Shown here one piece after another: positions 32,643 to 33,801 of a stretch of DNA of 43,336 bases (position 1 is its first letter; every line of letters starts with the position of its first letter). The position numbers and the translations under genes are program-made. This stretch comes from a virus (lineage: Duplodnaviria; Heunggongvirae; Uroviricota; Caudoviricetes): positions 1 through 43,336 of the IMG/VR virus record IMGVR_UViG_2554235189_000011; one strand, 5' to 3'. The notes under the pieces are model-generated. The model did no database searches. It worked only from the letters and a program-made list of their open reading frames with translations, and had not been told where the DNA came from.

Positions 32643-32792
32643 TGCATAATCCTCTTGGATGGTTCGCGTGCGATACGTGGCATCCTTCTCAGAATCGAAT
32701 CGCACTCCACTCCGGTTTTGCCATAAACGATCTTTTATGCTTCGCTGGATGTAGTTGATAGTTGTTGAAACTCAATGAACAGGAGTTCACAA

Positions 32793-33128
32793 ATGAATAG
32801 TTATGAATGGGAATGGCTTTTAAACAAAGATGACACCCTATGCTTTTTCCCCGTAGGCCATTCTGTAGAAGGTAATTACAAAATTCACTTTGAGTTGAGC
32901 GGTAGTTGTAACCTTAGAGTCTCAGATGCTGAATGGCATGGTAAACCTGTACTGCTGTTCGAATACTTCGATGAAGATGATGACCGCCCTGCAATAATCG
33001 AAATATTAGAAACAACCACTACAACTGTGGAGGCGATGATCGCACATCTGAATAGTATCGATAGTATTTACCATGAACCGATTTACAAAGCGGTTTACGA
33101 GTGGGCCGTAAAGTTTTTCTATCGATGA
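32793..33128 (+). CDS. hypothetical protein (low-GC island, opposite strand to late genes)
   Basis: Start MNSYEWEWLL... with CAGGAG RBS; acidic. Confidence 0.55.
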   Translation: MNSYEWEWLLNKDDTLCFFPVGHSVEGNYKIHFELSGSCNLRVSDAEWHGKPVLLFEYFDEDDDRPAIIEILETTTTTVEAMIAHLNSIDSIYHEPIYKAVYEWAVKFFYR

Positions 33129-33171
33129 TACTTCGTTATCTTGCTGGCATTCACAATACCTTTACATACTA

Positions 33172-33801
33172 ATGACATGCCAGCACAATACTGTCACTTA
33201 CAACCGTTCGGATTACCTAGAGAAAAGTATGATTCAGGATTTACTGATCGAAGCAATTAGTCACGATAGGATGCATAAAAAGTTAAATGAACTGAATTGC
33301 TACTTCTACAATCGCAAACATGAAACTCAAATACGTGATGAGTTAGTTGTTATTCTCAATCAAATCAGCACACTAACTGCTTTAAGTGAGCATCCAAAAC
33401 TCGGTATCGGCGCTGTTGACATATCACTTTATAACCAGTCGATATTAACGTCTGAACATAATGGCAATGTTGCAACCATCGAGATCAAACACCATTATCC
33501 AAAGGATTTACTTTATCGGCAAGTTCAAGAAGACATCATTTCCGATATTTCAAGAGTAATAGTTTCACCAACTACACATTTTATCCATATAATCCAGCAA
33601 AGAACTAGGATTAATACTCCTTCTTTTGGCCAAGTGAAATTCCTTGAACGTGATGCAAGTGATATCAGCACTTATGTGCAATGCCTTGAAGAGCTAAGTT
33701 CCTTCCCCAGTATCTTTCATAAAAAAGTATATGTATTGAGGTACTTGGTGAAATTATGTCGACATATACCTTTAACGTATATTCATTTGACAACTGATTA
33801 A
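33172..33801 (+). CDS. hypothetical protein (low-GC island)
   Basis: 209-aa ORF; start uncertain (possible internal Met at 33229). Confidence 0.55.
   Translation: MTCQHNTVTYNRSDYLEKSMIQDLLIEAISHDRMHKKLNELNCYFYNRKHETQIRDELVVILNQISTLTALSEHPKLGIGAVDISLYNQSILTSEHNGNVATIEIKHHYPKDLLYRQVQEDIISDISRVIVSPTTHFIHIIQQRTRINTPSFGQVKFLERDASDISTYVQCLEELSSFPSIFHKKVYVLRYLVKLCRHIPLTYIHLTTD

Follow-up and report, generated by a model that had tools for sequence, protein, structure and literature searches.

Two independent antisense genes at the lysis–packaging junction of a lambdoid-like prophage: a candidate stand-alone nuclease family and an acidic cargo protein

The stretch of DNA analysed here, referred to as the window, comprises the 43,336 nucleotides (nt) of IMG/VR record IMGVR_UViG_2554235189_000011 and looks like a lambdoid Escherichia coli prophage. 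Its late genes lie on the minus strand in the order Q, holin, GH24 lysozyme, Rz/Rz1 spanins, HNH endonuclease, P27-type small terminase subunit (TerS), large terminase subunit (TerL), and head and tail genes. Between the HNH and spanin genes this block is interrupted by two open reading frames (ORFs) of the plus strand, ORF1 and ORF2, which are the subject of this study. With the RefSeq start codons, taken from the annotation of near-identical copies, ORF1 extends from 32793 to 33128 and encodes 111 amino acids (aa), with AGGAG located 8 nt upstream (the longest ORF starts at 32775 and would encode 117 aa). ORF2, present as a frameshifted allele, extends from 33229 to 33801 and encodes 190 aa (longest ORF from 33172, 209 aa). 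The left border of the slot is the HNH gene (32294 to 32642 with the RefSeq start, longest ORF to 32710, minus strand; Pfam HNH, E 6e-16), which partners the P27-type terminase in packaging. The right border is formed by the spanin genes (33819 to 34353, minus strand), with Rz1/LysC (33819 to 34142; Pfam LysC, E 2e-17) nested in an Rz-like gene (33973 to 34353; assigned with Pfam, a DUF2570 match being found among the spanin genes). They are convergent with ORF2, the stop codons of ORF2 and Rz1 being 17 nt apart. An earlier note on this DNA had described plus-strand ORFs of low G+C content (GC) within the minus-strand late block, and the ORF listing and the base composition agree with that description. 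The GC is 0.373 over the two-gene region, 0.402 in ORF1 and 0.353 in ORF2, compared with 0.567 in HNH, 0.555 in TerS plus TerL, 0.465 in the spanins, 0.471 in lysozyme plus holin and 0.496 in the whole window. The length of about 111 aa that had been proposed for ORF1 coincides with the RefSeq start at 32793.

Both ORFs are real genes. When the segment was shuffled 2000 times, no shuffle contained 189 or more codons in a row without a stop, and 4% contained 111 or more. Both are under purifying selection, with ratios of nonsynonymous to synonymous substitution (dN/dS) of 0.06–0.14 versus diverged homologues, the proportion of synonymous differences (pS) being saturated. A lack of ORF conservation in related prophages had been named in the earlier note as an outcome that would count against it; conservation is what was found, for the two genes alike. 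On the opposite (minus) strand beneath ORF1 and ORF2 the ORF listing contains no frame longer than 48 aa. The search for RNA families gave no Rfam match, and inverted repeats occur at chance level. One arm of a 16-nt imperfect inverted repeat (32784–32799 and 33780–33795, 88% complementary) lies at the ORF1 start and the other at the ORF2 stop, and its position at the cassette ends is probably due to chance, as three similar pairs are present in the same 2.2 kb.

The view that the two proteins contain no recognisable motifs proved wrong for ORF2. In an alignment of 34 members of the ORF2 family, reaching down to 18% identity, the only invariant columns are K30, E32, D64, E85 and K87, so that an invariant E...D...ExK is displayed. 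The AlphaFold2 (AF2) model of intact ORF2 (predicted local distance difference test, pLDDT, 84.7; predicted template modelling score, pTM, 0.85) contains a helix at residues 29–46, strands at 50–53, 65–68 and 80–89, a helix at 97–108 and a strand at 117–127, followed by a C-terminal hairpin at 163–187 (strands 163–172 and 176–187). This arrangement corresponds to the alpha-beta-beta-beta-alpha-beta core of the PD-(D/E)xK superfamily. The active site of these enzymes is built from a catalytic aspartate at beta2 and the (D/E)xK residues in beta3, often with a glutamate in the preceding helix. When the alignment is mapped on the model, D64 falls at the beginning of beta2, E85-x-K87 within beta3 and E32 in the helix that comes before. 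Since the placement of these residues matches the PD-(D/E)xK register, ORF2 likely adopts a restriction-endonuclease-like nuclease fold, judging from model and alignment together. Foldseek searches with the ORF2 model gave no significant match in PDB or BFVD, and a weak HSDR_N match was obtained for one of the 34 family members (E 1.4e-4). None of the 5027 defence models of PADLOC (PADLOC-DB 2.0.0) matched ORF1 or the window ORF2 at E values up to 1, and intact ORF2 gave none either. PHROGs place ORF1 and ORF2 in families of unknown function and all sources label both proteins hypothetical; the literature, searched for the protein accessions and PHROG identifiers, contained no mention of them.

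The ORF2 family is rare, unnamed, restricted to Enterobacterales and single-domain, and it travels as a one-gene module. It forms 27 clusters in 5.8 billion proteins, a profile search recovered 42 representatives from 1.84 billion proteins, and 4 of 185,579 species-representative genomes carry it (Yersinia frederiksenii, one Citrobacter and two Proteus). Beyond E. coli, members reside in prophages of Yersinia, Citrobacter, Enterobacter, Klebsiella and Proteus, and the homologues are AT-rich throughout (GC 0.29–0.39). No methyltransferase gene adjoins ORF2 in the window or in the Yersinia, Enterobacter, Klebsiella, Proteus and Citrobacter loci, and the UMNK88 prophage, with an intact ORF2, contains no methyltransferase anywhere. 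The sole methyltransferase remnant of the window is a distant Dam-type gene of the nin region, disrupted by an insertion sequence (IS). Because no methyltransferase adjoins ORF2 and none is found in the UMNK88 prophage, ORF2 is not part of a classical restriction-modification (R-M) system. An unlinked R-M system, composed of ORF2 and the Dam-type methyltransferase of the prophage, was also considered and rejected, since UMNK88 has an intact ORF2 without such a gene; moreover, a methyltransferase of the nin region would not protect the lysogen. Hence, ORF2 differs from type II PD-(D/E)xK restriction endonucleases such as R.SwaI (5TGQ), BglI, EcoRV and MspI in having no cognate methyltransferase, and it shows neither a profile match to any restriction endonuclease family nor significant Foldseek similarity. 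Likewise, in comparison with the single-gene nuclease defences held in PADLOC, neither ORF1 nor ORF2 matches any model.

The earlier note had treated the two genes as a pair, an idea that did not survive a tally of their co-occurrence over about 115 fetched related loci (cited by their L numbers where needed). Of 5426 complete E. coli genomes, 73 (~1.3%) contain the full cassette, invariably flanked by this HNH gene and these spanins, and ORF1 and ORF2 are found together only in this E. coli cassette, at least 95% identical to the window; otherwise they occur apart. The diverged copies of ORF1 (56–91% identity; L015-L020, L046-L053 and L055) are all without ORF2, which is absent from 9 diverged IMG/VR ORF1 loci and from L015-L020. 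Conversely, the diverged copies of ORF2 (50–72% identity; Yersinia, Enterobacter, Klebsiella, Citrobacter, Pectobacterium and Proteus) are all without ORF1, which is absent from 24 diverged ORF2 loci, from L002-L014 and from L114-L117. Two E. coli contigs, L078 and L079, carry a 95%-identical ORF2 without ORF1, and blastn comparison with L078 delimits an ORF1 exchange unit that runs from 32643 to about 33102, with the module boundary at ~33103. Synteny across diverged lineages, the mark of a two-gene defence or type II toxin-antitoxin system, was not found, diverged copies of each gene standing without the other. As co-occurrence is limited to one cassette and ORF1 has its own exchange unit, the genes are independent modules stacked once and not a two-gene system; ORF1 and ORF2 are not a functional pair, and ORF1 is a cargo module separate from ORF2. 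A third module of the slot encodes an acidic protein of 75–85 aa that begins MGNVKIYAGLVNGDLMPIIE... (MGNVKIYAGL...) and is found in L004 (7683-7910), L053 (5627-5884) and L055 (3158-3415). Its gene lies upstream of ORF2 in Enterobacter-type loci and upstream of ORF1 in L053 and L055, and the protein gave no Pfam, PADLOC or NCBIfam match.

In every prophage context examined, among unrelated prophages of lambdoid or P22-like type, the genes are antisense and located between the lysis genes and TerS, and this position is constant despite terminases of the P27+HNH, Terminase_2, Sf6 and Terminase_4 types and differing lysis genes. The lysis–packaging junction of lambdoid phages therefore acts as a modular cargo hotspot in which small genes are shuffled singly, sometimes dragging part of the neighbouring terminase gene along. 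Relative to UTI89-type prophages, blastn defines a variable mosaic block from 32644 to 34334 that comprises a TerS relic, ORF1, ORF2 and the spanin genes; the UTI89 annotation has other genes in this slot. The relic, located just upstream of ORF1 (32689 to 32724, minus strand), was recognised by translation as an 11-codon remnant, MAKPEWSAIRF*, of the 5′ end of a Terminase_2-type TerS gene, though the TerS of the window is P27-type with an HNH partner. The sequence CCAGTCCGGTTTTGCCAT (reverse complement of ATG GCA AAA CCG GAC TGG), from a block conserved upstream of both genes, is the true TerS start (MAKPDW...) on the other strand beside ORF1 or ORF2 homologues elsewhere. Homology with several relatives breaks off precisely at the HNH start codon (32642/32643). 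Since the UTI89-type homology ends at 32643, the TerS relic is part of the imported block, and the retention of a foreign TerS relic implies that recombination brought the cassette in along with part of the gene that used to adjoin it.

Defence genes are among the other genes that use the slot and among the neighbours of ORF2 in it. In a Proteus prophage of IMG/VR (L100, 2710-5610) a complete Lamassu system is placed directly beside the ORF2 homologue, with an LmuA of 369 aa that contains the Cap4 nuclease domain (E 4e-148) and an LmuB of 579 aa (E 8e-237). A ClpP-like gene occupies the slot in Klebsiella. In one metagenome contig (L112, 3517-5555), a single example, a distant relative of ORF2 (34% identical) follows by 18 nt a 488-aa DUF2779/Cas4-like gene, with an AAA+ ATPase and a WYL-domain regulator also nearby; from its gene content this context looks like a defence island.

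The comparison with lambda bor made in the earlier note holds for position: the slot lies between the spanins and the packaging genes and cos, which is where bor resides in lambda as a lysogen-expressed, low-GC moron between Rz and cos on the strand opposite to the late genes. The Bor protein is a small outer-membrane lipoprotein. Unlike Bor, ORF1 and ORF2 have N-termini (MNSYEWEWLLNKDD... and MIQDLLIEAISHDR..., respectively) in which inspection revealed neither a hydrophobic leader nor a lipobox, and ORF2 has a predicted cytoplasmic nuclease fold. A closer positional parallel, with the same orientation, is provided by taiEcA of phi80 (orf63, PHI80_63), which is placed after Rz/Rz1 (Rz/rha) and before the packaging genes and cos, antisense within the Q-dependent late transcript. 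TaiEcA is a defence gene that acts by tail-assembly interference and lies in a 'noncontiguous operon'; lysogens produce the protein, its level drops on Q expression, and Tai homologues are mostly found upstream of the packaging module (PMC11364771). A related antisense logic has been described for Tha/Ith of Staphylococcus aureus phage 80alpha (PMC11087260). There is no sequence kinship between taiEcA and the window genes: homology was rejected by hhalign, with probabilities of 0.9% for the ORF2 family and 0.3% for the ORF1 family, and tblastn against the deposited phages including phi80 was also without match. Furthermore, Tai is not a nuclease but an inhibitor of tail assembly, and phi80 tai is accompanied by a late-strand anti-Tai gene of which no equivalent was seen here. 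Variable cargo at a fixed position between conserved phage genes is shared with the P2/P4 hotspots (Rousset et al., PMC9122126), although the hotspot described here belongs to lambdoid and not to P2-like phages. As in prophage defence hotspots, a Lamassu system is found in the same slot, and the Q–holin slot next to it contains a TIR plus caspase pair in UMNK88, a close relative of the window prophage.

The earlier note had missed that ORF2 of the window is frameshifted. The homopolymer at 33721–33726 (plus strand) is A6 in the window and A7 in intact copies; A7 is present in 19 other loci and A6 in the window only, and the E. coli genome matches listed all span 1352 nt versus 1351 in the query. 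The resulting −1 frameshift swaps the last 27 residues of ORF2, which form the conserved C-terminal beta-hairpin with its YTFNVY motif, and turns the intact protein of 189 aa (for example WP_000613841.1) into one of 190 aa (WP_244488631.1) in which every catalytic residue and 162 of the 189 residues are preserved. The exact allele is found on 21 public contigs, for which reason a sequencing error as the sole cause was rejected; intact alleles are found on well over 1000 contigs. ORF2 of the window is probably impaired, a minority allele deprived of its C-terminal hairpin. Other E. coli copies are broken as well, an IS1 truncation being found in L008 and L029. In three E. coli prophages of IMG/VR (L043-L045) only the first 38 codons of ORF2 are left, followed by ~3 kb that include a second copy of a TerS/HNH segment, a layout from which it seems that two related prophages have recombined at the junction.

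The explanation favoured here, to which a probability of about 0.5 is given, is a composite one: two unrelated moron genes have been stacked in a hotspot, and one of them, ORF2, is a lone lysogen-expressed restriction-like nuclease, probably with an anti-phage function. Mosaic recombination would have brought the two accessory genes together in the lysis–packaging slot. ORF2 would be transcribed in the lysogen from its own weak promoter and would act alone against incoming foreign DNA in the manner of a restriction nuclease. The anti-phage role, taken by itself, is put forward tentatively, with a little less than even chances, by analogy with the other genes of the slot. Since ORF2 has no methyltransferase partner, self-discrimination would have to depend on something else; candidates would be modification or structure of phage DNA (as in type IV systems), host-wide methylation, or activation by infection. 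Because ORF2 occurs alone, ORF1 is not needed for host survival, and hence the lone restriction-fold nuclease must be harmless to its host.

A promoter-like site (TTTACA-17-CACAAT; 33161 to 33189, plus strand) is located in the spacer between ORF1 and ORF2, ~40 nt before the ORF2 start; it is weak, with 9 of 12 matches. This stretch is retained in L078, where ORF2 is without ORF1, and in the diverged loci in which ORF2 comes first a conserved CATGTATAATCC (TATAAT) is found ~40 nt upstream instead. Late transcription must cross the cassette antisense in order to reach HNH, TerS and TerL, and the promoter/terminator scan found no terminator-like site between ORF2 and Rz1. Being antisense inside the Q-dependent late transcript, ORF2 would be turned down in the lytic phase of its own prophage. 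By analogy with phi80 tai, ORF2 would be on in lysogeny and damped during induction.

Several results weigh against the favoured explanation. The promoter scan of the region gave no more sites than shuffled sequence, and it revealed no good sigma-70 promoter upstream of ORF1. For neither ORF1 nor ORF2 is membership in a nuclease or defence family backed by a sequence match in Pfam, NCBIfam, PADLOC or PDB, and neither gene has a relative, at the DNA or protein level, in 50,697 deposited phage genomes. The putative defence role is drawn from location and neighbours only, and a lone restriction-like nuclease poses the problem of how the host is spared. In addition, ORF2 has repeatedly been broken or lost in E. 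coli (by IS1, 3′ replacement and frameshift), which fits a dispensable or costly gene or, equally, a useless one.

The layout of the cassette, a small acidic protein first and a nuclease second on the same strand with a 100-nt spacing, resembles that of type II toxin-antitoxin or effector-immunity pairs, and a small acidic protein precedes ORF2 in Enterobacter loci too. ORF1 would then neutralise the ORF2 nuclease until infection sets it free. Such a pair is very improbable: in Yersinia, Klebsiella and several IMG/VR prophages ORF2 stands by itself, preceded by no ORF on its own strand, ORF1 is alone in at least 15 loci and co-occurs with ORF2 in one recent cassette only, ORF1 is swappable at a boundary before ORF2, as seen in L078, and there is no PADLOC or Pfam match to a toxin-antitoxin family. 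The presence of an always AT-rich, one-gene nuclease module at one intergenic position of many unrelated prophages might also be expected of a free-standing, selfish homing-type endonuclease that spreads by cutting lambdoid genomes devoid of ORF2, and homing endonucleases with a PD-(D/E)xK fold, for example I-Ssp6803I, exist. However, the flanks differ fully between phage types, both in TerS family and in lysis genes, so that there is no conserved homing target site. The slot is also used by non-nuclease genes (ORF1, the 75-aa gene, Lamassu and tai), and the boundaries of presence and absence are mosaic, those versus UTI89 (32644-34334) taking in the spanins and ORF1 and not the nuclease alone. 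Moreover, antisense ORF2 would be poorly expressed in lytic co-infection, which is when homing happens, and this origin is accordingly considered unlikely.

A function of ORF2 in the DNA metabolism of the phage, whether in the resolution of junctions, in recombination, in the cutting of host DNA or as an aid to packaging, would dispense with defence altogether while using the same fold. It is considered unlikely: the gene is antisense to the late operon and thus poorly placed for expression in the lytic phase, it is missing from the close relative UTI89 and from all of the deposited phages, it is often disrupted, and the prophage already carries RusA, RecT and YqaJ. The remaining alternative, that the window cassette is decaying cargo without present function in which ORF2 has been inactivated and ORF1 is a passenger, draws on the loss of the conserved C-terminal hairpin through the A6 frameshift, on the IS3-family element in the Dam-type methyltransferase gene of the same prophage, and on the truncations by IS1 or replacement in other E. 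coli copies. Against it, the frameshifted allele keeps its catalytic residues and most of its length and persists on 21 contigs, and ORF1 is undamaged and does not differ from the common allele. Decay is regarded as rather improbable; it concerns this copy only and is compatible with the favoured explanation for the family, namely that of two stacked morons with ORF2 as a lone restriction-like nuclease.

If ORF2 does restrict phages without a methyltransferase, the way in which the host is spared becomes an interesting question. In a bolder and doubtful extension, the ORF2 family would represent a new single-gene, methyltransferase-independent, restriction-like defence of lambdoid prophages resident in this hotspot. 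Self would be recognised through a host-wide mark (Dam/Dcm) or foreign DNA through phage-specific modification or structure, antisense late transcription would silence the gene on induction of its own prophage, and ORF1 and the 75-aa gene would be further cargo of the hotspot, possibly with roles in defence or counter-defence. The window itself is of modest interest, as ordinary prophage cargo in which the more interesting gene is frameshifted. ORF2 is nevertheless a credible uncharacterised nuclease defence candidate among the cargo of a prophage hotspot, and its family of 189-aa stand-alone nucleases, unnamed in Pfam, NCBIfam, PADLOC and PHROGs, offers a concrete candidate for prophage-borne immunity. 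The modularity of the slot should help in finding more accessory cargo of the kind that ORF1 and the 75-aa gene represent.

ORF1 is an acidic protein of 13 kDa with an isoelectric point (pI) of 4.6 (WP_001089762.1; phrog_14397, unknown function), conserved in the motifs LLFEY-x-DEDDD and HLNSIDSIYHEPIYK. Its family consists of 11 clusters, 68–98% identical, with dN/dS of 0.07–0.14. Searches of Pfam, PADLOC, NCBIfam and PDB gave no match for it, and the AF2 model is poor (pLDDT 53). The only lead on its role is its independent residence in a defence-rich slot. A second acidic protein of 111 aa is encoded at 35257-35592, on the late (minus) strand between Q and holin (pI 4.05, GC 0.336; phrog_13663, unknown function); kinship with ORF1 was considered and rejected, the two proteins being unrelated. 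The gene at 35257-35592 is conserved in the UTI89 and NWU_3 relatives, and in UMNK88 (L118, 11847-13224) it is replaced in the Q–holin slot by an antisense pair encoding TIR-domain and caspase-family proteins. In a Yersinia enterocolitica prophage (L002, 10281-12816) the gap between holin and Q contains, in antisense, a protein of 501 aa with no Pfam match and a D12-class adenine methyltransferase, which may constitute an R-M or other defence module in a second late-region slot. The same prophage carries Mom and ParB-like genes before TerS.

The remaining late genes around the slot were assigned with Pfam, all on the minus strand: TerL (29944 to 31677) and TerS (31674 to 32177) on the packaging side, and lysozyme (34337 to 34813), holin (34800 to 35204) and Q (35778 to 36572) on the lysis side. 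In the nin region the window prophage is decaying. Of the Dam-type N6-adenine methyltransferase gene (PF05869) only the C-terminal half is left (39079-39462, minus strand, within 39079-40611), the gene being interrupted by an IS3-family element with orfA at 39398-39745 and orfB at 39865-40611 on the plus strand. The prophage of E. coli NWU_3 (L001, 908-3567) is defective, its tape-measure gene abutting the small terminase gene with the head and large-terminase genes deleted, yet its ORF1–ORF2 cassette is intact. Elsewhere in the window, a serine invertase gene (Resolvase plus HTH_7; 11896-12660, minus strand) adjoins a tail-fibre assembly gene (12998-13708, plus strand), which suggests that 11896-13708 is an invertible tail-fibre segment of the Gin/Cin type. 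Past the integrase (8273-11400) there are sizeable ORFs without Pfam match, at 8273-9040 (minus strand) and 9973-11004 (plus strand), and these could represent more cargo, carried at the end of the prophage that bears the attachment site.

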